DNA of 62,809 nucleotides, counting the filler. It is 6 parts of 6 records of this genome, joined end to end, with 100 filler letters (N's around TTAATTAATTAA, not from the genome) between each part and the next. Parts side by side here need not be neighbours in the genome. Positions count along the whole stretch, not along the records: positions 15,427 to 30,614 come from SRR31156797_12057; 5 more parts are not named here. One strand, written 5' to 3'. Of the stretch, positions 8,808 to 30,614 are shown piece by piece. A program made the translations under genes and the position numbers. The stretch's first letter is position 1. Each line of letters opens with the position of its first letter. The notes beneath the pieces are model-generated. The model did not search any database, was not told where the DNA came from, and saw nothing but the letters and a program-made list of their open reading frames with translations.

Positions 8808-8851
8808 GTTTCCAGATTTAAACACTAATGTCTTTGTCAAACAAAAACGTA

Positions 8852-15426: not shown

Positions 15427-15456
15427 TCGAACACGCGGCACCAGGATTAGGAATCC
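15427..15456 (-). repeat. Left att copy: duplicated tRNA-Arg 3'-half fragment ending at the anticodon arm
   Basis: Reverse complement GGATTCCTAATCCTGGTGCCGCGTGTTCGA = anticodon loop TTCCTAA, variable loop and T arm; sequence beyond 15456 no longer fits the tRNA stem. Confidence 0.85.
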
Positions 15457-15571
15457 GTATAGTATCTTTTTGAACAAATACTACCTATAGCTATAATGGT
15501 ATAAAATCATATACTTTTATTTTTTTAGATACCTTGACGCACCACCTGTTTCCACCTATTGAGATAAATAT

Positions 15572-15606
15572 TGTGGGGAATACTGTGGGGACCAGTGTGG
15601 GGACCA
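15572..15606 (+). repeat. Three TGTGGGGA direct repeats with 12-bp period (putative integrase arm sites)
   Basis: Copies at 15572, 15584 and 15596; same motif recurs at the other end. Confidence 0.8.
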
Positions 15607-15621
15607 AAACAAAATATACCT

Positions 15622-16749
15622 ATGGCAAAATACAAACGACATAAAACAAAATACCCCGGTGTATTCTTCATTGAGGGGCGGCATCCTGCCACCGGCAAAA
15701 CGGAAAAAACATATTATATCCGGTACCGCCTTGCGGGAAAACTCGTCGAGGAAAAAGCCGGGCACCAATTTCGCAATGATATGACCCCTGCTAAAGCATC
15801 CAAACTCAGAGGCCTTAGAATGGATGGTGAGCAATCAAACAACAGAGACCGTAGGAAAGAAAGCAGAAGCTCAAAAAAAATCACCATGGGAAATTTATGG
15901 GTAAAATTCCATGAAGGGAAAAAAAACAATAAAAGCATCAAAGACGATTATTATCGTTGGAAAGCCCATCTAGAACAAAACTTCAGTCCAGTTCTCCCGT
16001 CAGCCCTGACCACAACAGATATCGATCGCCTCAAACAGGTCTTAGAACGGAAAAAACTCGCTCCGGCAACAGTACGACAGGTGCTGATGCTCCTCCAGCG
16101 TATGTTAAACTTTGGAGCCAAACGCGGCCTTTGTAAACCCATTGATCCGGCACAACTTCAATTCGAAATGCCAAAAGTAAATAACATCAAAACAGAGGAC
16201 CTGTCTCTCGATCAACTAAAATCTCTTTTGAAGGCCATCAAGGAAGACTCCAACATTCACGCGGCCAACATTATGCAAATGGCATTATGTACCGGCATGC
16301 GAAGAAGTGAATTATTTGCACTAAAATGGGAACATATAGATTTTGAAAGAAAATTCATCAACATCGTCGACCCTAAAGGTGGAATCGATCAAAAAATCCC
16401 GCTCAATTCCGCAGCTCATGATATTCTTATTAACCATCCCCGTGGAGAAAGTCCTTATGTCTTTCCCGGCAGGAACGGCCAACGACGCAAGGATATTCGC
16501 CACCAAGTTGCACGGATCAAAAAAAGGGCTGGACTGCCGAAAAATTTCCGACCTCTGCACGGCTTAAGGCATGTGTATGCTTCAACCTTAGCGAGCTCCG
16601 GCAAAGTAGACATGTACACTTTATCAAAACTCCTAACCCACAAAAGCCCCGAGATGACTCAGCGTTATGCACATTTACGCGATGAGGCTCTAACACAGGC
16701 ATCAAACATAGCGAGTGACTTCATGAGTAGAATAGACACCGACGCTTAA
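15622..16749 (+). CDS. int: Tyrosine recombinase / integrase
   Basis: Catalytic R (TGMRRSE), HGLRH, H (LTHKS), Y (TQRYAH); N-terminal arm-binding-type domain; start MAKYKRH at 15622. Confidence 0.95.
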   Translation: MAKYKRHKTKYPGVFFIEGRHPATGKTEKTYYIRYRLAGKLVEEKAGHQFRNDMTPAKASKLRGLRMDGEQSNNRDRRKESRSSKKITMGNLWVKFHEGKKNNKSIKDDYYRWKAHLEQNFSPVLPSALTTTDIDRLKQVLERKKLAPATVRQVLMLLQRMLNFGAKRGLCKPIDPAQLQFEMPKVNNIKTEDLSLDQLKSLLKAIKEDSNIHAANIMQMALCTGMRRSELFALKWEHIDFERKFINIVDPKGGIDQKIPLNSAAHDILINHPRGESPYVFPGRNGQRRKDIRHQVARIKKRAGLPKNFRPLHGLRHVYASTLASSGKVDMYTLSKLLTHKSPEMTQRYAHLRDEALTQASNIASDFMSRIDTDA

Positions 16750-16854
16750 CGACTGAAACGTCATAAACGTCAAATCCGTCAATTTTGACGGTTATTCCTC
16801 ATACGACCACTTATAACCACAGCTATGTCTAGGCTTTGGTTTAAAGGAGTTACT

Positions 16855-17715
16855 ATGTCTAATGCTATCGATATCACGGGTCTTACAGCTAAAGATCTTA
16901 ACTTACTTTACCCAGCTCTTGGTGGGTACGAAGTCATTTGCTACCTCATTCGGGAAAGAACTTTGGCTCCGTTTGAAATAATCAAAACAAATGAATCCGG
17001 GAAACACACGGTCAAACCGTTTTCCTACTGGAACTATGGGATATGCCGCAGCCTTATTTTGGGTAAGCCTGTAGGGGACATCCTCTTCAAAATGTGGGAC
17101 GAGCATGACTGTGACGAATACTCCTTTTATGCTCCAGAAAAAATCCTGTTTGAAGAAAGCGCTGTCGCCAAAGTCTTGAAAACTTATCCTGCAATCATCA
17201 ATTCTGACAAAGTGCTTTTTAGCATCGACCCTGAATCTGGTGAAATCATTCACCACCATGATGAAGATTCTAATTCCCAACCTAATCACGAACGCAGTTG
17301 CGATAAAGATCAAGCTTGGCTTTTACTTCGTATGGAACAACTACTAAGCACACTTCAAGAAGCTCACAAAGAAATTGCCAGCCTCAAACAAAAGCTCTCT
17401 CTATCCGAAAAAGAAAACGGAACCTCGCCCAAGGCCAGTGAAGCGAGGAAAGCGTTGACAAAAAACACCGCTGAAACCTGGGCCAATCGCCTTGCAGTTG
17501 CAGTAACGTTGACGATAATTCTTATTAAGAAATGGGACACTAAAACCGACCGCGAACCTTGGGCAAAGGACGGTTTCACAAATGAGGAGCTCAAAAAATA
17601 CTCTGATGAATTAGGAGGACTGTCTCAAAGGGGACTTCGGTCTTTTAAAAAGGCTTTCAGGAAAAGTTGTCCTGAAGTTCTTCTCAAAAAAGGAGGAGGA
17701 GCTAGGCGCTCGTAA
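16855..17715 (+). CDS. Hypothetical element protein with a central coiled coil
   Basis: SD AAAGGAG before ATG 16855; lies between int and alpA. Confidence 0.7.
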   Translation: MSNAIDITGLTAKDLNLLYPALGGYEVICYLIRERTLAPFEIIKTNESGKHTVKPFSYWNYGICRSLILGKPVGDILFKMWDEHDCDEYSFYAPEKILFEESAVAKVLKTYPAIINSDKVLFSIDPESGEIIHHHDEDSNSQPNHERSCDKDQAWLLLRMEQLLSTLQEAHKEIASLKQKLSLSEKENGTSPKASEARKALTKNTAETWANRLAVAVTLTIILIKKWDTKTDREPWAKDGFTNEELKKYSDELGGLSQRGLRSFKKAFRKSCPEVLLKKGGGARRS

Positions 17716-17839
17716 ATTCCATCACCATTTTCAATAAAATCAATCTGTGCAATGAGTATGCACCGTTTTTTTTATCGTTTAGCCTCCGACAGCAAAACGG
17801 CCTTGTCATCCTGTAAAAACCGTTCTCTCCCAAAGACTC

Positions 17840-17880
17840 AAACCTCGTCGAACTGTGCTCAGTTCGACGAGGTTTTTTTT
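17840..17880 (+). terminator. Strong intrinsic terminator
   Basis: Perfect 16-bp stem AAACCTCGTCGAACTG-TGCT-CAGTTCGACGAGGTTT followed by a T tract. Confidence 0.85.
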
Positions 17881-17982
17881 GCAGCCCTTACAGCATGAAC
17901 AGATTACCGCGCTTCCCTCGACAACCTCTATGGGGTTCCATTCTGCCAACAAGAAAACGAAACCTTACCATGGAGTTCTATT

Positions 17983-18183
17983 ATGACTCATGAACAGTAC
18001 ATCAACGAAAAAGAAACATCTACCCTGACCGGCCTTTCCGTTGGAACTCTGCGCAAACACCGCCAAGAGATGCGCGGCATCCGGTATGCAAAAATCGGCA
18101 AATCTGTCCGCTATGCATACAGCGACGTGATCGCTTACATGGAATCCAAAATGATCAATCCTCTCAATTCGGTGAAGGGGTAG
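17983..18183 (+). CDS. AlpA/HTH_17-type excisionase-regulator
   Basis: YINEKETSTLTGLSVGTLRKHR..GIRYAKIGKSVRY; SD GGAG. Confidence 0.88.
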   Translation: MTHEQYINEKETSTLTGLSVGTLRKHRQEMRGIRYAKIGKSVRYAYSDVIAYMESKMINPLNSVKG

Positions 18184-18187
18184 AAAG

Positions 18188-20665
18188 ATGAATACGCTGA
18201 TAGACACATCAAAGATCATTGAATCCTTCCGTCAAGCTCTTGAACAGGCCGAAATCGTCACAGACGAGATTATCGCTGACGACGAAATCCACCGCTGTGG
18301 GACGACCGGCAAAGAGAAAAAAAAAGACGGCGCCTATCTCTTCCATAACAACCCTCCATACTCTGGCTGGTACAGAAATTTCCGAAATGACATTGAGGAC
18401 ACTTGGACGTACGAAGGCAACGTTTCTCTCGCCCCCGACCAGCTCAAAGCGATGCGAATCAAGATCGAACAGGAAAAAGAGGAACGTTTTAAGGAACGCC
18501 TGAAGCAGCAGACTGCTGCTGCCAAGCGTGCAGAAAAGCAAATAGCATATCTCCCAGCAGCAACGCCGAAAAACCCCTATCTTACCCAGAAAGGAGTTAA
18601 ACCGGCAGGAAATCTTCGCGAAGAAGGAGATATGCTTGTCGTACCCATGATCAATGAACAGGGAGAAATCCAATCCCTTCAACACATTTGGCCAAACGGT
18701 GACAAACGTTTTCTCAAAGGAGGCAAAACGAATGGAGGTTACTTCCCTATCAAGGGGGATAAAGGCCCTCTCTACATAGTAGAAGGCATCGCAACGGGCT
18801 TAACGGTCTACGAAGCCACTGGCGAAACAGTCCTGTGCGCCTTCAATGCAGGAAATCTGACCAATGTCGCGCGAATTGCACGCAATCTCTATCCTGATAG
18901 GAAAATCGTGATCGCAGCTGACAATGACCACCAGACGAAAAACAACCCTGGATTAACCAAAGGACGTGAGGCTGCAAGTGAAATTGGCGCCAAGCTCTCC
19001 AGCCCCCATTTCGCAGACAACTCCCTCGGAAGCGACTTCAATGACATCCACGCAACCGGTGGGATCGAGGAGGTCCGCAGACAACTCAATACTATAGAGA
19101 TAGCAATGGACGAAGTTCCCAAAAATTCAGGCATCCCCGTGAATCTCAAATCCTTGAGTCCGCCTGAAGATTTCCCGTTTGGCATATTCCCTAAGGACAT
19201 TGAAAAAGCCTTGACCGCAGCAGCTAAAGCTTTTGGCGTCCCTTTGGCTGTCCCTGGTCTCACCTTCCTGGTTGCAACGGCAGCCGCAATAGGGAGGACT
19301 CGTGCGCTTCAGGTAAAACCAGGCTGGAAAGTCACACCGAATATTTACGCTGCTCTCGTGGCTGACTCCGGGATGGGGAAGACGCCTTGTACTTCCCGAA
19401 TATTCAAAGCCTTGCAACAACAAGATTACAAATACTACCAAGAATTCCAAAAAAAATACGCTGAATACGAGGATTTATTGCAAGCCTGGAAAGATTCCAA
19501 AAAAAAATCGAGCAGCTCCTCTCAAGAAAAGCCTTCGATACCCACTCAGACCGAACTCTTGGTTGACGATGCCACCATGGAAAAAATCGGGCACATTCTA
19601 GCGGCAAATCCTCGTGGAATTCTCTGGCACAGGGATGAATTGTCAGGGCTCATCAATGATCTGGGAAAATACTCTAAAAATGGTAAAGGGGATGGCGACA
19701 AAGCCCGCCTCCTTTCCGCATACTCCGGAGAGCCATGGAAAGCCTCCAGAGTCACGAAGGATGGAGTATATGTCCCAGCTGCTTGCATCACCCTTTTCGG
19801 TACCATCCAGCCACAGATCCTTTTGAACTGTTTTAATAAGGACGACCAGTACTCTGGCCTATTACAGCGCTTCATTTTTATTCACGCTGAAAAAAACACC
19901 CCTTCGTTGTGGATTGACGATGTCTTCGACGAAGAAGCCGCTGCTCCAGTGGACCACGCTTTGGAATTTCTCATGGGCCTCAAACTCAACCAAGAAGAAA
20001 ACCCCTATTTGATCAGGCTATCTGAAGAAGGACGGGCAATTGCCATCGACAAATTCAACAAAATGGCGTGTGAAGTTGAAAACAATCCTGAACTTGAACA
20101 ATACAAATCCCTTGCTCCGAAACAACGAGAACAATTGTTCAAGATTTGCCTCAACCTCCACATGTTAAACTGCTGGGAAAAGGGCACCCCGGATTCGACT
20201 CCCGTTTCCGAAGACACCGTTCGCAAAGCGGTGACGTTGATAGATTGGATTGTAAAACACCAGAGATCAACTTGGGACATGTTCAACGGAAAAACCAAAC
20301 AGATATCTGGCAAGTCCTTAGCAAAACGTATTGGTAAAGCCATTATCAAACTGGAACAGAAAATCAACAAAGGAGTACTTCTGACTGGGGATATCGCAGC
20401 CGACCTGAACTCCGACCTCCCACCCGAATATCATGTATCATCTCGTTCCGTGGGAAAAACATATAGTCAACTGGGCTTGAGCACTGGACGGGGAAAATCA
20501 GGTGAGCGTGGCGTGAATATTTCTCCTGAAACCCTCAAGTTTTTGAAACAAACCTTCGAGAAGGAAAAAGTAAAAAACAGCGTTCCTACGTCCAATCCGC
20601 AAAAAAAACAGATCGGAGAATCCCCGCACCAGATCTGGGACGGCAAAAACGAGGTAGAGATATGA
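18188..20665 (+). CDS. TOPRIM primase fused to DUF3987 (helicase-like NTPase)
   Basis: SLQHI..GDKRF, IVEGIATG, AADND, SDFND (TOPRIM); Walker A ADSGMGKT, WHRDE, FGTIQP, GLLQRF. Confidence 0.9.
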   Translation: MNTLIDTSKIIESFRQALEQAEIVTDEIIADDEIHRCGTTGKEKKKDGAYLFHNNPPYSGWYRNFRNDIEDTWTYEGNVSLAPDQLKAMRIKIEQEKEERFKERLKQQTAAAKRAEKQIAYLPAATPKNPYLTQKGVKPAGNLREEGDMLVVPMINEQGEIQSLQHIWPNGDKRFLKGGKTNGGYFPIKGDKGPLYIVEGIATGLTVYEATGETVLCAFNAGNLTNVARIARNLYPDRKIVIAADNDHQTKNNPGLTKGREAASEIGAKLSSPHFADNSLGSDFNDIHATGGIEEVRRQLNTIEIAMDEVPKNSGIPVNLKSLSPPEDFPFGIFPKDIEKALTAAAKAFGVPLAVPGLTFLVATAAAIGRTRALQVKPGWKVTPNIYAALVADSGMGKTPCTSRIFKALQQQDYKYYQEFQKKYAEYEDLLQAWKDSKKKSSSSSQEKPSIPTQTELLVDDATMEKIGHILAANPRGILWHRDELSGLINDLGKYSKNGKGDGDKARLLSAYSGEPWKASRVTKDGVYVPAACITLFGTIQPQILLNCFNKDDQYSGLLQRFIFIHAEKNTPSLWIDDVFDEEAAAPVDHALEFLMGLKLNQEENPYLIRLSEEGRAIAIDKFNKMACEVENNPELEQYKSLAPKQREQLFKICLNLHMLNCWEKGTPDSTPVSEDTVRKAVTLIDWIVKHQRSTWDMFNGKTKQISGKSLAKRIGKAIIKLEQKINKGVLLTGDIAADLNSDLPPEYHVSSRSVGKTYSQLGLSTGRGKSGERGVNISPETLKFLKQTFEKEKVKNSVPTSNPQKKQIGESPHQIWDGKNEVEI

Positions 20666-21072: not shown

Positions 21073-21344
21073 AATCACTGCACAACCTTCTACACTCATA
21101 GCAAACGGCCACCCCCCTCCCCTACCCCCTACTATTGAGAAAGGGGGTGGCCCCCTATCGAAATCGATTCAGAGATAAAAAAAATAAAAATATTGCAAAA
21201 ATTTAACCGTTTTCAAAATTCACACTAGAGCTTTCAGATGTCTATTTACAACCAATTCTCTCCAGATTTAAAATGACAACCACCTAATATTGAACGGAAT
21301 TCCCACCGATGATACGATATCGCAAGAAACCCAAGGAGTAGAGA

Positions 21345-21575: not shown

Positions 21576-21623
21576 GGCAACCCGTCCAAAATTCAAATAT
21601 ATCAAAAGGAATCTGCCAGCTAG

Positions 21624-23717: not shown

Positions 23718-23784
23718 TTGCGGCTTGACCCCATTTCCTCTTCTGCTACTCTTTCAATGGGGGCTTCCGGTTACACTGTAATTA

Positions 23785-25167
23785 TTATTCGGAAACGGTG
23801 TCAAAACTGCCGCCCAGGGCTAGATGCAGGTCGATGCGCTGCAGAAGGCGTTGGTTGCGGATGTTGATCAACTCTACGCTTGAGCCGATCCATTGTCCCT
23901 GCATAATGAGCACGCTTAGGAGATCAGCTTTGCCAACTATATATTCGGCCCTGGCGATTTTAAGAGCATCCCGATACCGCGCTTCCACCGACTTCAGATA
24001 ATCATACTGGCTGGCAAGGTTTTTTTCGGACGACAGAGAGTTTTCCACTTCTCGAAACGCAACGAGTGCCTGCTGACCGTAACTGGCCATGGCCGCTTTC
24101 TGACCCGCTGTGGCGATGTCCACCTGCGCCTCAAGTGCTCCGCCTGTGTACAGAGGGCCGAACACACCCGCACCAAGGGTAGCAATAGTGTCCGCAAGGT
24201 TGTTGAACGCACCCACCGCGGAAAGGGAAAAGCGCGGGAGTCGAGCCAACTCGGCCTGCTGCGTCAGATAAAAGGCGGCAGCCACCCTACGCTCCGCAGC
24301 CTGTAAGTCGGGGCGCCGCTCCAGCAACTGGGAAGGTAGCCCCGCAGGCAACGGACCGGGGAACGCTGGCAAATCGTCTGCGGTGTCCATTTCTGCCGAG
24401 GGGTATCTGCCAAGCAACAATTCCAGACTGCGCTGGGCACGCTCCACGGCAAGGTCCGTCTGTTCGCGCCGTGATTTGGCAGCCGAAAGATTCGCTTCGG
24501 CCAGATGAACGTCTTGCATAGAGACCCGTCCCACCTCATGTCTGGTCTTAACGAGCTCGAACGTTTGGTCCATAATGGCGACCACGTCGTCGGCCAATGC
24601 GCTTTGCAATTTGGTTTCGATGCAGATGAACCATGCCTTGGCCACGGCTGCGGCAATGGACTGGCGGGCAAATTCGTAGTCGGACTGCGTGGCTTGCAGC
24701 GATTCCTCGGCTGCTGCGGTTCCGGCCCGGATACGGCCCCAGACGTCGAGTTCCCAGGACACGCCCAGCCCCACGTTGTACCGCTTGCTGTCTCCGGCAA
24801 GGGCTGCAAGCTGTTCGTTGCCGATAGTGGAACCGCTCACTTCGGCCCCATAGCCGACCATGGGCTTGAGAGCTGCGCCCGCAAGCACGGATTGGGCCGT
24901 GGCCCGTTCCACTCCGGCTTTGGCGGTCTGCAGGTCCAGGTTGTTCTTAAGGGCCTCATCCACCAACGCTCGCAGTTCCGCGTCGTCGAAGTTGTCCAAC
25001 CAGCCGTCATCAACGTTGCCTCTGTCCTGCGGGGAGGCATAGCTGTCGGGCACCGTTGTCTGTTCCGGCAAGGACGAACGTTGGATATCGCTCCCCTTGG
25101 GGGCCGGGGTGACGGCGCAACCGGTAAAACAGACAAGCAGGGTGATCAGGATGATGAACCGTTTCAT
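23785..25167 (-). CDS. TolC/NodT-family outer-membrane efflux lipoprotein
   Basis: Lipobox FTGC, NNLDLQ, SWELDVWGR, LLERRPDLQAAE, LALGG. Confidence 0.93.
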   Translation of the reverse strand: MKRFIILITLLVCFTGCAVTPAPKGSDIQRSSLPEQTTVPDSYASPQDRGNVDDGWLDNFDDAELRALVDEALKNNLDLQTAKAGVERATAQSVLAGAALKPMVGYGAEVSGSTIGNEQLAALAGDSKRYNVGLGVSWELDVWGRIRAGTAAAEESLQATQSDYEFARQSIAAAVAKAWFICIETKLQSALADDVVAIMDQTFELVKTRHEVGRVSMQDVHLAEANLSAAKSRREQTDLAVERAQRSLELLLGRYPSAEMDTADDLPAFPGPLPAGLPSQLLERRPDLQAAERRVAAAFYLTQQAELARLPRFSLSAVGAFNNLADTIATLGAGVFGPLYTGGALEAQVDIATAGQKAAMASYGQQALVAFREVENSLSSEKNLASQYDYLKSVEARYRDALKIARAEYIVGKADLLSVLIMQGQWIGSSVELINIRNQRLLQRIDLHLALGGSFDTVSE

Positions 25168-25175
25168 GGCGTATC

Positions 25176-26123
25176 CTAGTAAGGCAGTATGTAGTTCAAC
25201 CAGGCGTCCATACGGATGATAACCTGGCGAATGATGTGTGAGAATCCGGCACTCTTTGTGTAGATGGCCGCCGTGCCCAATGCGCCGCCGTAGATGGCGT
25301 CCTTGGGTAGATCCACGTTGTCGTCAAGTTGGACCACCACCGGGAACATACCTGGAAAGTTGGGGTTGGGAGCCGTCGGGGCGACGCCCGTGGGTATCCA
25401 CTGCCCCTGACCGATGGCGGTAGCCACATGGACTACGCTGCCTTTGTATATCCTGCCCGGCTGCAACTTCCAACTCACTTCGACATTCTGCCCCGGCTTG
25501 ACGTGGCGCAAGTAAGTCTGGGGGAGCCAGATGATGGGAATCCGGTTGTCCTTGACGAATGACACCCAGGATCGCAGCGGCATATTGGCCACACGCTGGC
25601 CTTTCTGGAGGGCCAGTGCAACTACATGCCCGTCCGCTGGGGCCTTGACCACAGTTTCTTCCAGATTCCACTTGGCGGACAGGAGTTGCGCTTCGAGCTG
25701 GCGTACCGTGGACTCGAATTGTTCCACGTCGTAACGGCTTCCCGCACTCTTTCCGGCAAGCTGTGTGGACTGCTTGAGTCGTAGCCGCGCCAAATCGAGC
25801 TGGGCTTCAAGGTTGTCGACAGTCGCCTTGAACAGGGTGTCGTCGATGGTGAAGATCGGATCGCCCTTGTGCATGGCCTTGAGCGGCTTGGCCGTTACTT
25901 CCGCCACTTCGCCGCTGACGTTGGGGATCACTTCCAGGATTTCCTGATACATGTTGATGTTGCCCTGCGGCGCACCCCATTGCATTGGAATGAAGAGGAA
26001 CACTAGCAGCGCGATCATCCACAGGACCGGGGAGAATTTCCAGAACGGGGTCCAGCGGATGATGTTCATCTTTACCAGTCCGAACAGGATGCCGACATAG
26101 ATGAGGACCAGAAAAACAATCAT
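25176..26123 (-). CDS. HlyD-family membrane fusion protein (YiaV/YibH-like)
   Basis: Two N-terminal TM helices, VIPNVSGEV, KGDPIFTID, VKAPADGHV. Confidence 0.9.
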   Translation of the reverse strand: MIVFLVLIYVGILFGLVKMNIIRWTPFWKFSPVLWMIALLVFLFIPMQWGAPQGNINMYQEILEVIPNVSGEVAEVTAKPLKAMHKGDPIFTIDDTLFKATVDNLEAQLDLARLRLKQSTQLAGKSAGSRYDVEQFESTVRQLEAQLLSAKWNLEETVVKAPADGHVVALALQKGQRVANMPLRSWVSFVKDNRIPIIWLPQTYLRHVKPGQNVEVSWKLQPGRIYKGSVVHVATAIGQGQWIPTGVAPTAPNPNFPGMFPVVVQLDDNVDLPKDAIYGGALGTAAIYTKSAGFSHIIRQVIIRMDAWLNYILPY

Positions 26124-26365
26124 GCCTGTTCCTCCTTGGATTTTTTATCAGGGACCGTGAAGGCCCAGATGAATGCCACGGGCATGAGCAGCCCCATGGT
26201 TATGGCGCCCCACCAGCCACAGATATTGACGGCCTCGGCCTGGGGGTGATTTCGCTGCCTAGCTATCTTGCCCGGCAACATGCCGAGGAACAGCCATATT
26301 CCAACGGCTGTGATAATCAGGACCACAAGGATGACAAGAGCGAAGTATTGCAACCCGTCAAACAT
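26120..26365 (-). CDS. DUF3302 (YiaW/YibI-like) small membrane protein
   Basis: LPGKIARQRNHPQAEAV..GW..P.AFIWA signature. Confidence 0.88.
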   Translation of the reverse strand: MFDGLQYFALVILVVLIITAVGIWLFLGMLPGKIARQRNHPQAEAVNICGWWGAITMGLLMPVAFIWAFTVPDKKSKEEQA

Positions 26366-26403
26366 CGACTACTCCTTTTATAGGTAATTGAGCATCCGTA
26401 GGT

Positions 26404-27525
26404 CTATTCCGCAAGGGAGAGGCTGCTCGGCTCAAAAAGATCCTCAATGGTGAGAAGCTTCTTGGCGAGTTTCTGCTCGTAGGAGTACCGGAACAGCGCC
26501 TCCAGCGTCTTACGGTTCGGCTCGATGCCGTAGGGGAAATAGTTGTCCCCCATAAGTCGTTTTGTTTCTTCATACTCCTGCGGAGCCCACGGCAGCATTA
26601 AGTCGTACCACGCCTTCTGGGTCAGGTAGTCGTATGCCTTCTGCTTGGACTGGGAGTATGCCTTGAAAGTGGCCTCTACCAGTCCGGGGTGGGCCTCGGA
26701 GAGATCTTTCCTGATGGCTACGGCGTGCATGATCGGGAAGATACCCGTCTTCTTGAAAAATGCCTGCTCTTCGGCCCTGGAATCGGCAAGGATGCGGGCA
26801 ACCTTGGGGTGGCCTTCAATAAAGCATTGGGGTTCTGCTGCGTGGAAAACCGCGTCCACGTCGCCGTCCGCCAGCAGATCCGATTCGCTCTTGCCCGCCG
26901 GCCCCATGGTGGCGGAAATGCCCTTGGGCACGACGCTCTCCTCGGCTGAGACCTTGCCTGCGGCATTGGCCGAGGAATCCTTTTGGGAAATGACCCACTT
27001 CACCTCTTCCGGCTTAAGGCCATACTCGTCCTGGAAGATGCCGCGAATCCATGTCAGCGAGGTGGACGAGTACCCTGCTGTTGCGACTTTTTTCCCCCGC
27101 AGGTCTTGAGGTTTATTGATGCCCCGATCCGTGCGGATAAAGACGTTCTTGTGGCGGAATGTCCGAAGGGGAAATATCGGAAGGAGCCAATAGTCGCGAA
27201 AATTGTTGTTGGCATAGGCAAGCATGAAGGGGTGCAGCCCGACTTCGGTGATACCGAGTGTCTGCGGCCCGCTGAACACATGGGTGTTGATGTCGCCGAT
27301 TCCCATGGGTTTGTATGTGATGTCACATCCTTCGATGCCGATTTCCCCGCTGACGAGGGCGCGGGTTCGATCCAGGCTGTATCCGGACAACTCAATGGGG
27401 ATGCCCTTGGCGGTGGCACTGGCAGGCGCGCTGCCTAGCAGGGAAACGGCTACGGCCGATGCGGACGCAGTCTTGATGAAATCTCTTCGGGAGATGCCGT
27501 TGGTGTCGCTAGTCTTTTTACTCAT
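26404..27525 (-). CDS. Tat-exported periplasmic-binding-fold protein related to 4,5-dihydroxyphthalate decarboxylase
   Basis: SRRDFIK Tat motif; PIFPLRTFRH, DLRGKKV, WIRG, TGIFPIMHAV, PYGIEPNRKTLE. Confidence 0.82.
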   Translation of the reverse strand: MSKKTSDTNGISRRDFIKTASASAVAVSLLGSAPASATAKGIPIELSGYSLDRTRALVSGEIGIEGCDITYKPMGIGDINTHVFSGPQTLGITEVGLHPFMLAYANNNFRDYWLLPIFPLRTFRHKNVFIRTDRGINKPQDLRGKKVATAGYSSTSLTWIRGIFQDEYGLKPEEVKWVISQKDSSANAAGKVSAEESVVPKGISATMGPAGKSESDLLADGDVDAVFHAAEPQCFIEGHPKVARILADSRAEEQAFFKKTGIFPIMHAVAIRKDLSEAHPGLVEATFKAYSQSKQKAYDYLTQKAWYDLMLPWAPQEYEETKRLMGDNYFPYGIEPNRKTLEALFRYSYEQKLAKKLLTIEDLFEPSSLSLAE

Positions 27526-27543
27526 TGGTATATCTTCATTTTT

Positions 27544-28284
27544 TTAGAAGTCGAATTTGAATCCGAATGCCGGGCCGATCTGGAGCAGGTCGTACTTGAA
27601 CCCGTCGTCACGGTAATAGACGTCCATGGCCCGGAAGCCTGCCACCAGCGAAAAGTGCTTGGCAGCCTGATAGTCAAAAAGCAGTTCGCCGTTCAGGGCG
27701 TGGTCGGCCCCGATGCCGAAACCGCCGACATCGCCACGGAACGACATTTTCCAATCATCGGAAATCTGGTGCACAAGCCGCAAGCCCACCACCGGGTCCA
27801 CCCAGTCTACATCCTTGTCGATGGACCGGGCCGAACCTATGGACAGGTCCAGAAACGTGGCGCGAAATCCGGCCAGAAAATCCAGATGGGTGTCTTCCTG
27901 CAAGAATATGGAGTAATAGCCGAGCAGTTCGGTCATGGTCTGGCTGAAACTGACATCGATATTGCCGGGGCCCACTGCCTGGCTGCCTGTGAGCTTCATG
28001 TACGACGTGTCGAATAGGGCACCATACTGCCCCTTGTTCGCTTGCATGCGCAGGGTGAACATGGATTCCAGTGCATTTGCCACGTCCCCGAAGTTCATTT
28101 TGACATCCGTGGCTGCAGGCCCGGTCGTGGCAGTGCCGTCAAGGTGCACGGCCCAAAGATACATGGGGGCAACGTCGAACTGCCAGGGTTCGCTTTCATC
28201 GCCGCCTTCCGCGCATACGGGGAATGCGAGGGCTATTGCGACGAAAAAAAAGAGAGCTGTTGAGAAAGGGCGCGCGCTGTTCAT
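27544..28284 (-). CDS. Outer-membrane beta-barrel protein
   Basis: Signal peptide, WQFDVAPMYLW, DWVDPVVG, DVGGFGIG, C-terminal FDF. Confidence 0.8.
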   Translation of the reverse strand: MNSARPFSTALFFFVAIALAFPVCAEGGDESEPWQFDVAPMYLWAVHLDGTATTGPAATDVKMNFGDVANALESMFTLRMQANKGQYGALFDTSYMKLTGSQAVGPGNIDVSFSQTMTELLGYYSIFLQEDTHLDFLAGFRATFLDLSIGSARSIDKDVDWVDPVVGLRLVHQISDDWKMSFRGDVGGFGIGADHALNGELLFDYQAAKHFSLVAGFRAMDVYYRDDGFKYDLLQIGPAFGFKFDF

Positions 28285-28294
28285 ATTAAAATCC

Positions 28295-28340
28295 AAAAAA
28301 AGACGAGGCGAGAGGCCGTGGAATCCGGCCTCTCGCCTTG
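28295..28340 (-). terminator. Intrinsic terminator after the sulfatase gene
   Basis: CGAGGCGAGAGGCCG/CGGCCTCTCGCCTTG stem with a T7 tract on the minus strand. Confidence 0.75.
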
Positions 28341-28353
28341 ATGGTTGTTGGTT

Positions 28354-29964
28354 CTAATTTTTGGGCTTGAAGTTGGACAGGCCCGTAAATACTTTACCTG
28401 TACGGGGTGGGGTATTGGGGTATTTTTCCATCATTTTTTCGTGATTCGCCTTGATGGCATCAAAGGGTTCCCATGCCCACAGGAACTGGCCCATCATGCC
28501 ATGCTCTTCGCGGGGGTCCTTGTACAAGTCAAAGAAGGACTTGCCCACTAGGCCGGGACGGCTAGACGCCCAATGGCGCTTATACTGTTGTTTGACGGTC
28601 GCCCCGTACATAGGACCTGCATAGATATGGACATAGTCACGGCGGCTGTGCCCGTCACCGTTGATGAGCAGAGAGGTCTGGTCCACACCGTCGATGACGC
28701 GATCGGTGGGGATGTACTTGGTCGCATCTCCAATGCGGGCAAAGGTGGTGAACAGATCAGAGACATGGAGGATGTCGCCAGCCACAGAACCGCTCTCGAT
28801 GACGCCAGGCCATCTGGCGAATGCTGGAACACGAACGCCGCCTTCAAGGAAGGAACCTTTGCCACCGGAGAAGATGGCTTGGAATGCTTCGTCGGGGAAG
28901 ATCTCTTTCATGGGACCGTTGTCAGCCATGAGGATAATCAGGGTGTTTTCAGCTATGCCAGCTTTTTCCACTTCTGCGAAGATTTCGGCAACCATCTTAT
29001 CCATGTGTTCTACAAAGTCACCGAAAGCGTTGGCGCGAGCGCTATTTGCCTCACGGCCATGCTTGACTTCGGGGGCAAAGTTTGGCCCATGAAACCAGTA
29101 ATCAAGATAAAAGGGTTTTTTGTCCCCTGCGTGGTCACGGATATACTGTAAGGTGCGCGAATGGGTTTCCTTGGTGAAGCGAAGCTGTTCATCTGCTGAA
29201 AGGTCCTTATTCCAACGTTTGCCCTTTTCGCCTTTTTTGCCTTCAACTGCCCAGACAATTTCATCGCCAGAATAACGGAATTTCTTGTCGATGGCATACC
29301 CATGCTTGTCCCACTGGTCTTCAGTGTAGCCGACGGTCATGCGGATAAGCTCGCCTTCTTTGTTGAAGAACTGAGATGCAAACTGGTTGTAGGTCGAGAA
29401 AAGAGCTTCATCGAACCCCTGGTTGTGCAAATAGCTTTCTTCGATATCGCCTTGATGAGCCTTGCCGAAGAATGCGGTCTGATAACCGGCTTTGGACAGG
29501 ATTTCCGCGATGGTCACTTCTTCACCGGGCAATCCCATTCCGTGGATGGGAAAAATAACTTGATACATGCCGGTACGAATGGGGTGACGTCCCGTCAATG
29601 CTGCGGCGCGGGTTGGCGTGCAGGATGGCTCGGTATACATGCGGGTGAACGTCATGCCGTCTTCTGCCATCTTGGCGATGGTCGGCGTGTCGATACCATG
29701 CACACGGGTTAAAATGGGGCTACCGACGTCGCCATAGCCAGAGTCGTCCCACATCAGGTGAATGATATTCGGAGACTTGCCATATTTGGCTTTGAGTTCG
29801 GCAAGTTTCTTGTCGAGCTTCACGTCTTCCATGGTCCACTTGGCGCCGTGTTGTTCGTACAGTTTGACGAACTCGGCATCATGAACAATCTTCTTGCCGG
29901 CATGAGCGGGGATGATCCCCAATACCATAACCAGCATGGTAATTAAGAGAATTCTGATTTTCAT
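28354..29964 (-). CDS. Exported Cys-type arylsulfatase (formylglycine-dependent family)
   Basis: Signal peptide, PNIIHLMWDDSG, SCTPTRAAALTG (CxPxR), GKAH, ADNG, GGKGSFLEGGVRVP. Confidence 0.93.
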   Translation of the reverse strand: MKIRILLITMLVMVLGIIPAHAGKKIVHDAEFVKLYEQHGAKWTMEDVKLDKKLAELKAKYGKSPNIIHLMWDDSGYGDVGSPILTRVHGIDTPTIAKMAEDGMTFTRMYTEPSCTPTRAAALTGRHPIRTGMYQVIFPIHGMGLPGEEVTIAEILSKAGYQTAFFGKAHQGDIEESYLHNQGFDEALFSTYNQFASQFFNKEGELIRMTVGYTEDQWDKHGYAIDKKFRYSGDEIVWAVEGKKGEKGKRWNKDLSADEQLRFTKETHSRTLQYIRDHAGDKKPFYLDYWFHGPNFAPEVKHGREANSARANAFGDFVEHMDKMVAEIFAEVEKAGIAENTLIILMADNGPMKEIFPDEAFQAIFSGGKGSFLEGGVRVPAFARWPGVIESGSVAGDILHVSDLFTTFARIGDATKYIPTDRVIDGVDQTSLLINGDGHSRRDYVHIYAGPMYGATVKQQYKRHWASSRPGLVGKSFFDLYKDPREEHGMMGQFLWAWEPFDAIKANHEKMMEKYPNTPPRTGKVFTGLSNFKPKN

Positions 29965-30513
29965 ACGATCACCTCATTTGGAATGCTGTAATACTTCTCG
30001 ATTTCCACAGTAAAAACATTGTCGACTTACACGGCGGGAAATAGCCCTATACCACTAGGTAATAACTCTTATCACATATTTACCTAAAATCCATCAAAAA
30101 AGTGCTTTTTTAAGAGTAGTATACTGTGACTAGTTGTTATTTTTATATAATACACCTTAGTATTGACGACTTGTGTGAATCGCTTCTCTCTGTGATACAA
30201 GCCATCTGCGCTTGAGGCCACTCTCTCCTGCAGGAGGAAGTGGTAGCAGACTTTTACGGTAGGGTTTTCAGCACGTTACATTTTGGGTCAAGCCGTTAAC
30301 AAGCTGAGAAATGCACCAGATTAAAGGAGGTCTATAGGCCTCCTTTTCCTATTGTAGCCTCTTTCGAGCAAGTCTGCCCTCTCTCAACTTTGACGACCAA
30401 TGACAAAAATGGCGTTTAAGACATTTTTGACGTTATACTCAACGTGCAGACAAAAATCTTTGCCACCCCATACACAAAGTTAGCTAACTAAAAGAACCCA
30501 AATTGCTCTAGGC

Positions 30514-30536
30514 TGTGGGGACTATTGTGGGGACCA
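30514..30536 (+). repeat. Two TGTGGGGAC repeats with 12-bp period (putative integrase arm sites)
   Basis: Copies at 30514 and 30526; same motif and orientation as 15572-15606. Confidence 0.8.
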
Positions 30537-30543
30537 TAAAAAA

Positions 30544-30579
30544 TAAGGCCTCAGAGCATACACTCTAAGGCCTTGATTT
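30544..30579 (-). promoter_or_regulatory. Hairpin downstream of the tRNA with an overlapping IHF-like site
   Basis: TAAGGCCT..AGGCCTT stem; minus-strand AATCAAGGCCTTA fits WATCAAnnnnTTR. Confidence 0.55.
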
Positions 30580-30584
30580 TATTG

Positions 30585-30614
30585 TGGTGCCCCCAGCGCG
30601 ATTCGAACACGCGG
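30585..30614 (-). tRNA. 3' end of tRNA-Arg(CCT), right att; truncated by contig end
   Basis: Reverse complement CCGCGTGTTCGAATCGCGCTGGGGGCACCA (T arm, acceptor strand, CCA); anticodon assigned from the overlapping left copy. Confidence 0.85.

Follow-up and report, generated by a model that had tools for sequence, protein, structure and literature searches.

Integrative mobilizable elements (IMEs), or mobilizable genomic islands, carry an integrase, lack a T4SS and rely on a helper. Integration beside fis is a hallmark of the PICMIs (phage-inducible chromosomal minimalist islands) of Vibrionaceae according to the authors who described them (PMC10803314). In the same description, int, AlpA (PF12728) and the DUF3987 primase are the mandatory genes of the PICMI detection model, and the three were experimentally needed for the excision and replication of PICMI115 (PMC10803314). 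Tycheposons are described from marine bacteria that include Prochlorococcus (bioRxiv 10.1101/2020.12.28.424599), and VEIMEs (virion-encapsidated integrative mobile elements of seawater) are described as integrated across diverse bacterioplankton (PMC9618062).

We analyzed a stretch of 62,809 nt (the window), which consists of six contigs with N...TTAATTAATTAA...N spacers between them. The third contig (15427–30614; 15,188 nt) is a complete element that spans att to att inside the 3' half of tRNA-Arg(CCT). We consider it, with a probability of about 0.6, to be an island of marine Desulfobacterota that excises and replicates itself but depends on a helper. Its features are summarized in Table 1.

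Table 1. Features of the element, with positions in the window.
Feature	Position	Strand	Basis or remarks
Left att core copy	15427..15456	-	last 30 of 48 repeated nt; tRNA-Arg(CCT) positions 30-59
Three direct TGTGGGGA(C/A) repeats, 12-nt spacing	15572..15604	+	116-148 nt from core, just upstream of int
Tyrosine integrase, 375 aa	15622..16749	+	ATG 15622, inward-facing; PF00589 1.3e-28, phrog_1 2e-61
orf2, 296 aa	16825..17715	+	no family; backbone gene
Intrinsic-terminator-like hairpin	17840..17875	+	16-bp perfect stem (100% complementary) and T run; between orf2 and alpA
AlpA-like HTH protein, 66 aa	17983..18183	+	PF12728 HTH_17 27.4 bits (cut-off 27); phrog_66 4.4e-5
TOPRIM (Toprim_3)-DUF3987 primase-helicase, 825 aa	18188..20665	+	PF13148 4.9e-55, PF13362 2.6e-12
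orf5, 136 aa	20662..21072	+	no family; start overlaps primase stop by 4 nt
Perfect 10-bp inverted repeat	21107..21235	.	arms 21107-21116 / 21143-21152, then A+T-rich stretch; read from sequence
Small ORF, 76 aa	21345..21575	+	no family; AAGGAG 7 nt upstream
orf6, 677 aa	21684..23717	+	short polyvalent-type protein; backbone gene; parts covered by X2, X3, X5 contigs
Cargo slot, six co-oriented genes and upstream region	23754..30235	-	G+C above backbone
Outer-membrane efflux factor (NodT/TolC family), 460 aa	23785..25167	-	PF02321 3.3e-48; TIGR01845 251.8 bits (cut-off 210)
HlyD-family periplasmic adaptor, 315 aa	25176..26123	-	PF13437, PF16576; TIGR01730 85.9 bits, below 94.9 cut-off
DUF3302 small membrane protein, 81 aa	26120..26365	-	PF11742 4.6e-20
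TAT-signal periplasmic binding protein, NMT1/SsuA/TauA kind, 373 aa	26404..27525	-	PF09084 8e-07, TAT_signal
orf11, 250 aa	27544..28296	-	signal-peptide-like start; OMP_b-brl E 0.013 only
Sulfatase, 536 aa	28354..29964	-	PF00884 8e-41; signal peptide
Conserved non-coding right arm	30236..30584	.	X2, X3, X5 contigs at 97-98% identity
Right att core copy	30585..30614	-	first 30 of 48 repeated nt; tRNA positions 48-77, CCA

Element ends and the tRNA-Arg(CCT) core

The sequence TCGAACACGCGG is present at 15427–15438 and 30603–30614, where it forms a 12-nt overlap of the contig ends. It was found nowhere else in the window, even with one mismatch allowed (2 copies observed, 0.16 expected), and two copies were reached in 0 of 100 shuffles. 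ARAGORN detected no tRNA in the window, because each contig end holds only a partial tRNA. Two complete 77-nt tRNA-Arg(CCT) genes detected by ARAGORN in other genomes (L168 and L169) were used as references. The reverse complement of the right end was identical to positions 48–77 of both genes, including CCA (30/30), and that of the left end aligned to positions 30–59 with the anticodon loop included.

Contigs of runs X1, X2 and X3 part from the element exactly after 15456 and continue into the remaining tRNA. On the other side, X1 and X3 contigs part from it exactly before 30585, and the listed X2 contig does so at 30577. These divergence points indicate that the repeat consists of 30585–30614 plus 15439–15456, giving 48 nt. 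Between the core copies lie 15,128 bp of unique sequence, which gives a predicted circle of 15,128 + 48 = 15,176 bp. The end alignments and the divergence points thus bear out the earlier note, which had proposed an att-to-att contig with a 48-bp tRNA-Arg(CCT) 3' half and a circle of this size. In the integrated form, the left core copy would be a displaced partial tRNA, the right copy would run on into an intact tRNA gene, and a hairpin of the right arm (30574–30545, minus strand) would terminate this gene.

In run X1, the probable source run, the whole element is one contig with a depth of 122.2. A flank contig of 10,996 nt (depth 111.2) has only 30585–30614 in common with it, followed by unlike DNA, and the flank contig and the rest of the tRNA meet the element at exactly 48 nt. 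At the right-end repeat copy there is a 32-nt contig with 3 differences, whose depth of 245 is approximately that of element and flank summed. The flank contig could itself be mobile DNA. The element is present at about 1.1 copies per flank copy in X1, the sole informative run (122 versus 111), and the replicating state suggested earlier finds no signal in this ratio. No attP or empty attB junction was found in the reads or contigs; the k = 31 contig graph is identical for an integrated element and for a circle plus an empty site.

Backbone, cargo and host

The gene calls and profile matches agree with the core order proposed in the earlier note (int, orf2, terminator, alpA, TOPRIM/DUF3987, small ORF, all on the plus strand). 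The backbone order ends with orf5, the 76-aa ORF and orf6 (677 aa), and all backbone ORFs are open; int, alpA and the primase gene are intact and retain their catalytic residues. The integrase residues R227/R228, H313, R316, H340 and Y349 are invariant across 7 relatives, and the closest relatives among the 120 listed exhibit 77, 77 and 72% identity. The TGTGGGGA(C/A) repeats are candidate arm-type integrase sites. Two TGTGGGGAC repeats lie in the right arm at 30514–30534, and all 4 exact copies of the repeat in the window adjoin the two contig ends; the argument is one of placement and spacing, because the total with one mismatch (10) equals chance. The region 30200–30510 has a folding z of −2.67 on the plus strand. 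The TGTGGGGAC repeats at both ends, the polyvalent-type 677-aa ORF and the cargo other than the sulfatase are additions to what had been noticed earlier.

orf2 had no match in Pfam, PHROGs, NCBIfam or PADLOC and only unnamed clusters in Atlas, and its single-sequence structure model was uninformative (pLDDT 41). The AlpA-like protein, whose stop codon lies 4 nt before the primase start, is a candidate excisionase or activator; phrog_66 is annotated as "excisionase and transcriptional regulator". The primase-helicase matched phrog_2249 (DNA primase, 3e-64) and phrog_2373 (helicase, 1.6e-38), and its residues E199, D245, D247 and K398 are invariant across 14 relatives. orf5 gave a single, non-significant match (TraI_2_C, E 0.12). 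The inverted repeat and A+T-rich stretch downstream of orf5 are, as judged from their sequence, a candidate replication origin, and a promoter-like site at 21245–21274 precedes the 76-aa ORF.

Three modules make up orf6: one at the N-terminus, an HExxH zincin-like one (about 160–390) and an LPD39-like one (about 392–655). Its relatives are mostly giant proteins, 5 of the 11 scanned having InPase, ddrB-ParB, SNF2, ART-PolyVal, LPD38, MuF_C or Eco57I domains, and in fold it best matched large polyvalent tailed-phage proteins (lowest E 2.8e-9). No Pfam LPD model matched orf6, even at E ≤ 10, and neither a MuF nor another head-incorporation domain was found in it. Polyvalent proteins are described as typical of conjugative elements and of phages, and are proposed to enter the cell alongside DNA (PMC5512222).

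No head, packaging, tail, lysis, relaxase or T4SS family matched in the 12 main ORFs searched against Pfam, the 12 ORFs searched against NCBIfam or the 7 + 9 ORFs searched against PHROGs, in line with the earlier report that no capsid, portal, terminase, relaxase or T4SS gene is recognizable. "None recognizable" is the right wording for the transfer genes, because 4 of the 12 main ORFs (orf2, orf5, orf6 and orf11) match no Pfam family at E ≤ 0.01. Furthermore, profile searches found no terS, capsid-redirecting or interference genes on the element, and PADLOC matched 0 of 12 proteins.

The backbone (15457–23753 and 30236–30584) recurs in X2, X3 and X5, which are runs of three marine studies other than that of X1. 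Its listed pieces, including those of the right arm, are 96.8–100% (X2), 96.9–100% (X3) and 94–99% (X5) identical, many with 0 differences; X2 contigs show 0 differences over the orf2 portion 16891–17281, and 4 differences and 1 gap over 20888–21322. An X2 contig leaves the element for unlike DNA after 23753, and unlike DNA also precedes 30236 in an X5 contig and in an X2 contig of 1,886 nt that fits the element with its last 379 nt only, so that both cargo borders are left in X2 and one in X5. These results indicate that the backbone is common and the cargo exchangeable, and the proposed search for the same core with variable cargo was positive in the X2 and X5 contigs. The contigs with the integrase relatives of 77 and 72% identity are 10,476 and 12,522 nt long, and primase relatives at 51 and 52% come from contigs of these same lengths, which suggests sister elements of other sizes. 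Islands L223 and L230 have the same layout at other tRNA genes. Only 3 relatives of the primase with at least 50% identity were found, and orf6 had a single close relative; an undescribed family is accordingly plausible for the backbone, but the kind of element is already known.

The G+C content is 0.54–0.61 at 24001–29000, compared with 0.36–0.53 in the backbone windows. The sulfatase cargo named in the earlier note was confirmed by the Pfam match and by the C-x-P-x-R site, which reads CTPTR in translation; scores against the arylsulfatase and choline-sulfatase models of NCBIfam were under the cut-offs, and no sulfatase maturase was found on the element. The binding protein matched SsuA_fam (3.7e-08) and taurine-binding models, all far under the NCBIfam cut-offs. 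orf11 had no family in Pfam, NCBIfam or PHROGs and is possibly an outer-membrane beta-barrel. We infer that the genes now in the slot form a module that benefits the host through organosulfur use or export.

Desulfobacterota account for all 10 integrase relatives with an organism name among the 120 listed and for the 18 best primase loci in species genomes. The host is probably a marine Desulfobacterota (sulfate-reducer) lineage, as also thought earlier, on the basis of relatives with 44–61% identity and of a tRNA match made without a control phylum.

Proposed mobility and alternative readings

In a helper-dependent island, the integrase would recombine the 48-nt core, aided by the flanking TGTGGGGAC arm repeats, and the element would restore the tRNA 3' end and supply the terminator as well. 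Excision would be triggered or directed by the AlpA-like protein. The translationally coupled alpA-primase-orf5 operon would then copy the circle, with the origin probably at the hairpin and A+T-rich region at about 21.1–21.2 kb. Because it has no recognized transfer genes, the element would move as a hitcher, for which the earlier note had considered a helper-dependent or vesicle-borne route; by analogy with PICMI and VEIMEs, packaging in helper-phage particles would be the likeliest route, and orf6 may be an early-acting protein that aids establishment in the new cell.

It is unlikely that the element is instead an integrative mobilizable element whose circle is moved by the conjugation machinery of an ICE or plasmid in the same cell, with an unrecognized oriT, perhaps an ORF without a family as relaxase or accessory factor, and the TOPRIM primase and orf6 acting in the recipient. 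Primases of conjugative plasmids are transferred into the recipient and act there. Relatives of the TOPRIM part were found in 4,698 of 72,556 plasmid records (3,864 predicted conjugative) versus 141 of 50,697 phage records, which speaks for conjugation over phage transfer. In plasmids they often lie within "LPD7 domain-containing" proteins, TOPRIM fusions to ArdC/zincin (P0065, P0069, P0070) and to TrwC-type relaxase-helicases (P0071, P0073) occur, and the polyvalent type of orf6 would suit conjugative elements too (PMC5512222). However, the plasmid matches span 44–60% of the primase, with 0 records covering 80%, and the DUF3987 half is a marker of PICMIs, described as phage-borne (PMC10803314). 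Moreover, an integrase of the same clade (54%) is followed by primase, terS and terL on an IMG/VR contig, relaxase, coupling protein and T4SS families were unmatched in any ORF, and the TraI_2_C match of orf5 is not significant.

We also regard as improbable a genomic island without a dedicated transfer route, which would spread only by vertical inheritance or through chance events (vesicles, generalised transduction, natural transformation) and swap its cargo by homologous recombination between backbones. The ratio of about one copy per flank copy and the lack of a free-circle junction (in a k = 31 graph that is the same either way) are consistent with such an island, as is the lack of any hijacking or interference gene match in Pfam, PHROGs and PADLOC; cargo tycheposons are described as not found in phage fractions, with vesicles proposed (bioRxiv 10.1101/2020.12.28.424599). 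On the other hand, backbones almost the same as this one occur in three other studies and, in two of the runs, give way to unlike DNA where the cargo begins or ends, which argues for recent horizontal spread. The 48-nt cores are identical, all backbone ORFs have stayed open, and keeping a primase-helicase operon intact alongside a polyvalent-type protein would be costly for an element confined to the chromosome.

It is highly improbable that the element is not discrete but an arm of a larger prophage or ICE, or of a tandem array that the assembler broke at the tRNA repeat, or a low-GC/high-GC chimeric contig. In favour of this reading, the G+C content does rise from 0.36–0.49 (15–21 kb) to 0.54–0.61 (24–29 kb), the bin contigs range from 34 to 57% G+C, the 10,996-nt flank contig may itself be mobile DNA, and X2 and X3 show a second, differing path beyond 15457, so this core can be followed by other DNA. 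Against it, X1 holds the whole element in one contig (its depth being a single contig-wide mean and not a test of evenness), the integrase and arm repeats at one end are matched by arm repeats and a tRNA terminator at the other, and in X2, X3 and X5 the conserved backbone is accompanied by the right arm from the far side of the cargo, as predicted for a genuine element that holds its cargo slot inside and not for a chimera.

Comparison with described elements

We compared the element with each described system. Like IMEs, it has an integrase and no T4SS, and its TOPRIM primase is of a type common in conjugative plasmids; it differs from them in that a relaxase or oriT was unrecognized. With P4-like satellites and PICIs, as described by the SatelliteFinder models (PMC10085698), it shares an integrase, an AlpA-type regulator, a large primase/replicase and a size of the same order, and its layout resembles the PICI left arm. 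However, seven core components are given there for P4-like satellites, among them psu, delta, sid and epsilon, and five for PICIs, among them a capsid-morphogenesis gene and terS; none of these named genes was matched on the element.

The element resembles PICMIs in its three-gene core, marine origin and direct repeats at the ends, and in the absence of capsid-remodelling and packaging genes. It lies in tRNA-Arg(CCT) and not next to fis, has 15.2 kb and about 14 genes compared with about 6–7 kb and about 6 genes, probably belongs to another host phylum, and differs further in the TOPRIM N-terminus of its primase, in a backbone protein of the polyvalent type and in a 6.5-kb slot for metabolic cargo. 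PICMIs are described with a helper and virion concatemers, whereas the element is known here from its genes. The term "satellite" was therefore not retained, as neither hijacking genes nor a fis site was found in the comparisons with P4-like satellites, PICIs and PICMIs. VEIMEs are likewise small marine integrative elements with an integrase, AlpA and a primase/helicase and no major capsid gene (PMC9618062); they are defined in that source by concatemers in virus particles, and the element, known from its sequence, is likened to them by description.

Tycheposons, as described in bioRxiv 10.1101/2020.12.28.424599, are defined as one lineage by an integrase clade and hallmark gene profiles of their own, and the element is likened to them by function only; of the name "tycheposon-like", the functional definition stands. 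Its probable host is an anaerobic member of Desulfobacterota and not a streamlined photoautotroph, and tRNA-Arg(CCT) is outside the seven Prochlorococcus sites listed there. In functional terms, the element shares with tycheposons an inward tyrosine recombinase at one end with an adjoining replication module, insertion into a tRNA gene together with a partial repeat of that tRNA, a size of 10–20 kb without capsid or conjugation genes, and a modular backbone with swappable, nutrient-related cargo.

Delimitation of the element and its tRNA core

The six contigs of the window, joined by N...TTAATTAATTAA...N spacers, have G+C contents of 0.42, 0.37, 0.51, 0.57, 0.38, and 0.34. This spread suggests that the window is a mixed bin, in which the element and the low-GC contigs may or may not share a host. 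The element is exactly the third contig (15427-30614; 15,188 nt, 51% G+C), and the genes on the other five contigs are ordinary chromosomal ones (Glx- and Ala-tRNA synthetases, carboxylases, MutS, aconitase B, glycosyltransferases, and sensor kinases). No integrase was found at a contig end of the fourth contig (10,904 nt). Apart from the element, one 585-aa ORF at 36197-37954 on the minus strand matched T6SS VipA (residues 94-194) and VipB/tail sheath (residues 284-571), as if both sheath subunits were fused, and adjoins the gene of a hybrid-cluster (prismane) protein.

Within the window, the sequence TCGAACACGCGG is confined to the two ends of the element; 2 matches were counted where 0.16 would be expected, and none of 100 shuffles gave as many. 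No tRNA gene was found in the window using ARAGORN. Two complete tRNA-Arg(CCT) genes (loci L168 and L169), from genomes that share the phylum of a Desulfobacteraceae MAG, were used as references. The reverse complement of the right end was identical to tRNA positions 48-77 of these genes, CCA included (30/30), and that of the left end aligned with positions 30-59, within which the anticodon loop lies. These results indicate that the element ends are overlapping portions of one 48-nt tRNA 3' half. The repeat is split such that its last 30 nt open the contig and its first 30 nt close it, the repeated core being 30585-30614 plus 15439-15456. The 12-nt overlap of the ends follows from a k=31 contig graph on a 48-nt repeat (2 x 30 - 48 = 12); assembly at k=31 is our reading of the 30-31-nt overlaps between run contigs. 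The joined circle is 15,176 bp with about 14 ORFs. In the public sequencing runs X1, X2, and X3, contigs continue past 15456 by 8, 13, and more than 255 letters, respectively, and the extension reads as the D arm and 5' acceptor strand of the tRNA, which indicates that a complete tRNA-Arg(CCT) gene exists. The alignments and these contigs confirm the claim of the earlier note that the contig spans att to att with a 48-nt tRNA-Arg(CCT) 3' half.

Within the one phylum covered, the 30-mer of the tRNA 3' end was present with up to 2 mismatches in 14 of 401 genomes and was exact in 3 (G379, G278, and G250). These three genomes contained no close relative of the primase, the one match having 29% identity over 85 residues. 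Among 183 loci, the core pattern was found beside no integrase relative and occurred only in the intact tRNA genes of L168 and L169. In L169 (1531-2400), the intact tRNA-Arg(CCT) gene is followed by the same 14 nt as the right end of the element, then by a hairpin with a T run, CCCCAC-type repeats, and a HigB/HigA-like pair, the contig stopping about 1.2 kb in. Most likely, this region derives from a related element, either as its arm or as what remains of it.

The exact sequence TGTGGGGAC occurs four times in the window, always on the plus strand and with 12-nt spacing. On the joined circle, the repeats would flank the 48-nt core at distances of 51-71 nt and 116-148 nt, and arm-type integrase sites usually sit at such distances from the core. 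With one mismatch allowed, 10 occurrences were found in total against a chance mean of 10.0. Because this count equals chance, the argument rests on placement, by which the repeats are candidate arm-type integrase sites. The hairpin and T run directly after the tRNA 3' end would act as a predicted tRNA terminator supplied by the element. Between orf11 and the sulfatase gene, a hairpin is terminator-like in both directions, and hence the six cargo genes may form two transcription units. The conserved non-coding right arm (30200-30510) contains two strong hairpins (30218-30243 and 30323-30346), and its plus strand folds better than 100 of 100 shuffles (z -2.67); it could encode a small RNA or contain an origin or packaging site. 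No Rfam family reached the gathering score in the window, and the element contig gave one chance-level suhB row (E 0.4).

Features of the element (window positions unless stated otherwise) and of two sister islands
Feature	Position	Strand	Evidence or remark
TGTGGGGAC pair, left	15584-15604	+	third copy with one mismatch at 15572
Tyrosine integrase (int)	15622-16749	+	PF00589 1.3e-28; phrog_1 2e-61
orf2, 296 aa	between int and the 17840-17875 terminator	+	no family
Terminator hairpin, perfect 16 bp	17840-17875	+	between orf2 and alpA
alpA-primase-orf5 operon	17983-21072	+	Pfam, PHROGs
AlpA-like HTH, 66 aa	operon, from 17983	+	PF12728 27.4 bits, cut-off 27; phrog_66
TOPRIM + DUF3987 primase-helicase, 825 aa	within 17983-21072 operon	+	PF13362; PF13148 4.9e-55, 187.6 bits; primase/helicase PHROGs
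orf5, 136 aa	operon end, 21072	+	start overlaps primase stop by 4 nt
76-aa ORF	between orf5 and orf6	+	good ribosome-binding site
orf6, 677 aa	after 76-aa ORF	+	see text
orf6 segments	residues 1-115; about 160-390; about 392-655		HMMER matches
NodT/TolC-type outer-membrane factor	cargo	-	Pfam/NCBIfam-type families
HlyD adaptor	cargo	-	family match
DUF3302 protein	cargo	-	family match
TAT-signal NMT1/SsuA-like binding protein	cargo	-	family match
orf11, 250 aa	cargo	-	weak beta-barrel match
G+C-rich hairpin, 15 bp	28304-28340	both	terminator-like; between orf11 and sulfatase gene
Sulfatase, predicted secreted	cargo	-	CTPTR site
TGTGGGGAC pair, right	30514-30534	+	exact copies
Hairpin with T run	30574-30545	-	directly after tRNA 3' end
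L230 island	ends at tRNA-Asp		int, ORF, HTH, CHC2-D5_N-DUF5906 primase
L223 island, about 9.3 kb	786-10161 of its locus		between two full-length tRNA-Arg(TCT) genes; int, 231-aa ORF, 891-aa TOPRIM protein

Backbone genes and their relatives

The int gene reads inward, 166 nt from the core. The core order proposed earlier (int, orf2, terminator, alpA, TOPRIM/DUF3987, and a small ORF, all on the plus strand) is supported by the family matches and the hairpin at 17840-17875. The primase start lies 4 nt past the alpA stop, and the AlpA-like protein did not match PF05930, the other AlpA family of the PICMI model. The catalytic residues of the integrase (R, HxxR, and Y) and the TOPRIM E and DxD and Walker A K of the primase are invariant in the alignments with relatives. 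The primase had no match among solved structures. For orf2, Atlas returned unnamed clusters only, the single-sequence model had a pLDDT of 41, and no likeness was found to the position-2 ORFs of the sister islands L005, L223, and L230.

No ORF matched head, packaging, tail, lysis, relaxase, coupling-protein, or T4SS families (Pfam, PHROGs, and NCBIfam), in agreement with the earlier statement that no capsid, relaxase, or T4SS gene is recognizable. A "head and packaging" PHROG was matched by 0 of 16 ORFs, and no terminase family was found in Pfam. Four ORFs have no family match at all, and a divergent terminase or morphogenesis analogue among them is possible. None of the 12 proteins searched with PADLOC matched a defence family.

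Among 5.8 billion protein clusters, only three relatives of the primase had at least 50% identity (63, 52, and 51%), and the next full-length matches reached at most 33%. In the search with one genome per species, the best full-length matches had 31-35% identity, and the best 18 loci were all in Desulfovibrio-, Bilophila-, or Desulfobacter-type records. Neither the scan of genome contigs with the single primase (84 stretches) nor the scan of metagenomes with the four closest primases (592 stretches) gave a relative. The closest relatives of the integrase had 77, 77, and 72% identity, followed by a large clade at 54-61%. All 10 organism-named relatives among the 120 matches listed belong to Desulfobacteraceae, Maridesulfovibrio, Pseudodesulfovibrio, and Desulfovibrio, and the clade was present in 19 of 251 sampled genomes of the same phylum. 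The contigs with the 77% and 72% integrases measure 10,476 and 12,522 nt, and those with the 51% and 52% primases are of the same two sizes. This coincidence, the equal sizes being the one basis for pairing them on the same contigs, suggests that the 77%/51% and 72%/52% pairs represent sister elements of other sizes. Sister islands of the integrase clade, such as L230 and L223, have the same layout with other targets and other replicases; the integrase of L223 is 50% identical to that of the element. On L266, an IMG/VR contig of 9,029 nt, a 54% identical integrase at the start is followed by a primase-like gene, terS, and terL. L266 is a phage or a capsid-forming island with the same left-arm layout, and the integrase clade thus also occurs in genuinely phage-like genomes.

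The product of orf6 had one close relative, P0083 (742 aa, 54% identity), encoded on a contig of 8,333 nt. A HMMER search against 1.84 billion representatives gave 749 matches with E <= 1e-3, 116 with E <= 1e-10, and 28 with E <= 1e-30; the best were mostly proteins of 1,000-5,000 aa, each aligned to one of three orf6 segments. InPase, ddrB-ParB, SNF2/ResIII, ART-PolyVal, LPD38, MuF_C, or Eco57I methylase domains, which are markers of polyvalent proteins, were present in 5 of the 11 scanned relatives, and the other 6 had no family at 1e-5. The middle segment contains a HELLH motif and weakly matched Peptidase_M78 (E 0.022). The Atlas feature search returned viral LPD39 clusters with scores of 0.95, 0.93, and 0.92, in which LPD39 is found on 65, 18, and 76% of the members, respectively; LPD domain models (e.g. 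PF18858, LPD39) did not match orf6 itself at E <= 10. The AlphaFold model of orf6 (32 sequences) had a mean pLDDT of 73.6, with 80-98 in both main domains. A Foldseek search with this model gave no PDB match at E <= 0.001. In BFVD, the model had four matches at E <= 1e-3 (best 2.8e-9), to large polyvalent proteins of uncultured tailed phages. In VIA-align, the best Z was 6.7 (rmsd 4.4, 194 residues) to an ejectosome protein of podophage PhiM1, a value that can reflect a common helical arrangement, and the modelled likeness is only a lead. Relatives of orf6 were present in 1 of 50,697 records of cultured phages and 1 of 72,556 plasmid records.

In the part of the source available, it is proposed that polyvalent proteins accompany phage or conjugative-element DNA on its injection or transfer and that zincin-like peptidases process them (PMC5512222). 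Such proteins combine modules shared among large multidomain proteins that phages and conjugative elements encode, often together with a zincin-like HExxH peptidase; with its module matches and its HELLH motif, orf6 fits this description. The most unusual feature of the element is that a capsid-less island has a short polyvalent-type protein in its backbone. This protein is the sole feature that does not fit the described satellite families, and it could inform how such elements become established in a new cell.

Two further observations concern the two ends of orf6. In its N-terminal part (22033-22099), 65 nt are replaced in X2 by 5 other letters; this change nets 60 nt, so the reading frame is kept. 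The site falls in a low-confidence linker of the model, and the region is the most divergent of the backbone (24 differences in 747 nt). P0083 extends about 180 residues past the end of orf6 (compared at 23655-23717). The likeness is lost after residue 657 of orf6, some 100 nt short of the cargo border. From this alignment, the cargo slot may have replaced a C-terminal module.

Cargo slot, copy number, and proposed mechanism

Four runs (X1, X2, X3, and X5) were compared, all as Logan contigs, which have no power to show starts, strands, or rare forms; X4 (share 0.07) was left out. Three of the runs, X2 (seawater), X3 (marine), and X5 (marine sediment), belong to three studies besides that of the possible source. 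Their contigs cover pieces of 15427-23753 and 30236-30614. Four X2 pieces had 0 differences over 391-885 nt and the others were 96.8-99% identical; the X3 and X5 pieces were 96.9-100% and 94-99% identical, respectively. One X2 contig departs from the element after 23753, 36 nt past the orf6 stop, and another of 1,886 nt fits with the last 379 nt only (30236-30614). An X5 contig likewise carries unlike DNA before 30236. These departures indicate that the cargo slot is 23754-30235 and that the backbone includes orf6 and the 349-nt right arm. The G+C content, 0.36-0.53 in backbone windows versus 0.54-0.61 at 24-29 kb, agrees with these limits. The earlier note had raised the possibility that the same core carries variable cargo, and the contigs that leave the backbone, in X2 at both slot borders and in X5 at one, bear this out. 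Over the cargo, X2, X3, and X5 gave no cover at 25060-29115 and 0.1-0.4 in four X2 bins elsewhere between 24046 and 30129; this sparse cover was not counted as evidence, the slot being defined by the loose ends at its borders only. The cargo borders showed neither repeats nor a second att-like site. In X2 and X3, a second, different continuation follows the 48-nt core plus one base (15457 on), which indicates that other DNA can follow the same core there. Another element or variant uses the same att site in these communities.

In X1, the whole element is one contig with a depth of 122.2; this run may be the source of the stretch and hence is not independent. A 10,996-nt contig with a depth of 111.2 shares only 30585-30614 and then continues into unlike DNA; it is the flank on the tRNA-3' side. 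The depth of a 32-nt contig at the right-end repeat copy (3 differences) was 245, approximately the sum of element and flank. An integrated element and a circle with an empty site would give identical contig graphs and hence cannot be told apart in these data, and no joint of the right end to the left end was found among the joints listed in the run contigs. One X1 joint, from 15453 to 30584, was rejected as an element junction; its depth was 17.6, its 27-nt side was too short, and it was read as the tRNA region of another organism. Four X1 pieces within the cargo (33-59 nt, 3-4 differences) were taken as paralogues of other organisms.

We consider, with a probability of about 0.6, that this is a self-excising, self-replicating, helper-dependent integrative element, for which a phage helper would be the likeliest route. 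Int would recombine the 48-nt core with the assistance of the arm repeats, AlpA would trigger or direct excision, and the coupled alpA-primase-orf5 operon would copy the circle, perhaps from an origin at the 10-bp inverted repeat and A+T-rich run of 21107-21235. Transfer would require a helper. A phage is favoured in this role because the core comprises the three genes needed for the PICMI115 lifestyle, because the integrase clade adjoins terminase genes (L266), and because the fold relatives of orf6 are phage proteins. Against the phage route, relatives of the TOPRIM half are far more numerous in conjugative plasmids than in phages, and some TOPRIM homologues are fused to ArdC or relaxase-helicase domains. 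The same two observations speak for mobilization by conjugation, which we nevertheless regard as unlikely; no relaxase family was matched, although an oriT is unrecognizable without its helper and several ORFs are family-less. The active replication claimed in the earlier note finds no support in the depth in X1, which gave about 1.1 element copies per flank copy; that the island is altogether passive seems improbable to us. The contig runs from att to att, and its being a piece of a larger element, or a chimera, is very unlikely.

A more specific form of the phage-helper reading is rather doubtful. It holds that the element is the first member seen of a so far undescribed family of phage satellites, which shuttle cargo in marine sulfate-reducing bacteria as an anaerobic equivalent of tycheposons; that the 8.7-kb backbone (int, orf2, alpA, TOPRIM-DUF3987, orf5, the mini polyvalent protein, and the right arm) swaps metabolic cassettes at a fixed slot; and that the polyvalent protein is packaged with the DNA in the particle of the helper and disarms the defences of the recipient on entry. 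To our knowledge, no satellite packages its own polyvalent protein against the defences of a recipient.

Comparison with satellites and marine integrative elements

Hitchers, which excise and replicate and do not transfer themselves, are thought to form a large and poorly charted share of genomic islands, and the worked examples are mostly from enterobacteria, staphylococci, vibrios, and Prochlorococcus. The present element places the same minimal engine of int, AlpA, and DUF3987 in a host that is probably a marine member of the Desulfobacterota and links it to a fixed cargo slot. This slot holds organosulfur genes in this copy, and at both of its borders X2 contigs pass from the backbone into different DNA. 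If it moves, it would offer sulfate reducers a route for trading metabolic modules. It is also a compact, fully delimited test object, with a 48-nt core, arm repeats, three core genes, and a candidate origin.

In the part of the survey available, P4-like satellites are assigned seven components as their core (integrase, psu, delta, sid, alpA, epsilon, and alpha) and PICIs five, including a capsid-morphogenesis gene and a small terminase (PMC10085698). In contrast to P4-like satellites, the element has only the integrase, the AlpA-like protein, and a primase of other architecture and is without psu, delta, sid, and epsilon (Pfam and PHROGs); unlike PICIs, it is without terS or a morphogenesis gene (PHROGs and Pfam).

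The PICMI model, as given in the accessible part of its description, combines an integrase (PF00589, PF00239, or PF07508) co-located with the other core genes, an AlpA (PF05930 or PF12728), and a primase with DUF3987 (PF13148) or DUF5906 (PF19263) (PMC10803314). The element possesses all three core genes in these families, AlpA barely so (27.4 versus 27 bits). According to the same partial source, integration beside fis is "a hallmark characteristic" of PICMIs, which average about 6.7 kb with about six genes and are found as concatemers in the particles of a virulent helper phage (PMC10803314). In contrast, the element ends in the 3' half of tRNA-Arg(CCT), no Fis-type family was found on its contig (Pfam), and it is larger, with 15,176 bp and about 14 ORFs. 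The 135 int-alpA-prim elements reported there from complete genomes may already include elements of Desulfobacterota (PMC10803314).

VEIMEs are defined, in the portion of the source available, by concatemeric repeats in virion DNA (PMC9618062); the present element is known from contigs of bulk runs alone. In function, the element corresponds to tycheposons, as far as their description was available to us (bioRxiv 10.1101/2020.12.28.424599); these are also defined by an integrase lineage of their own and by shared hallmark gene profiles. The element resembles them in its integrase, which lies at one end, faces inward, and adjoins the replication module, in the tRNA-gene site with partial tRNA repeats, and in its adaptive cargo (a sulfatase, an SsuA-like binding protein, and an efflux set), the function of which is deduced from families. 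Every functional point of the available tycheposon definition is found in the element, and the likeness drawn here is one of function.
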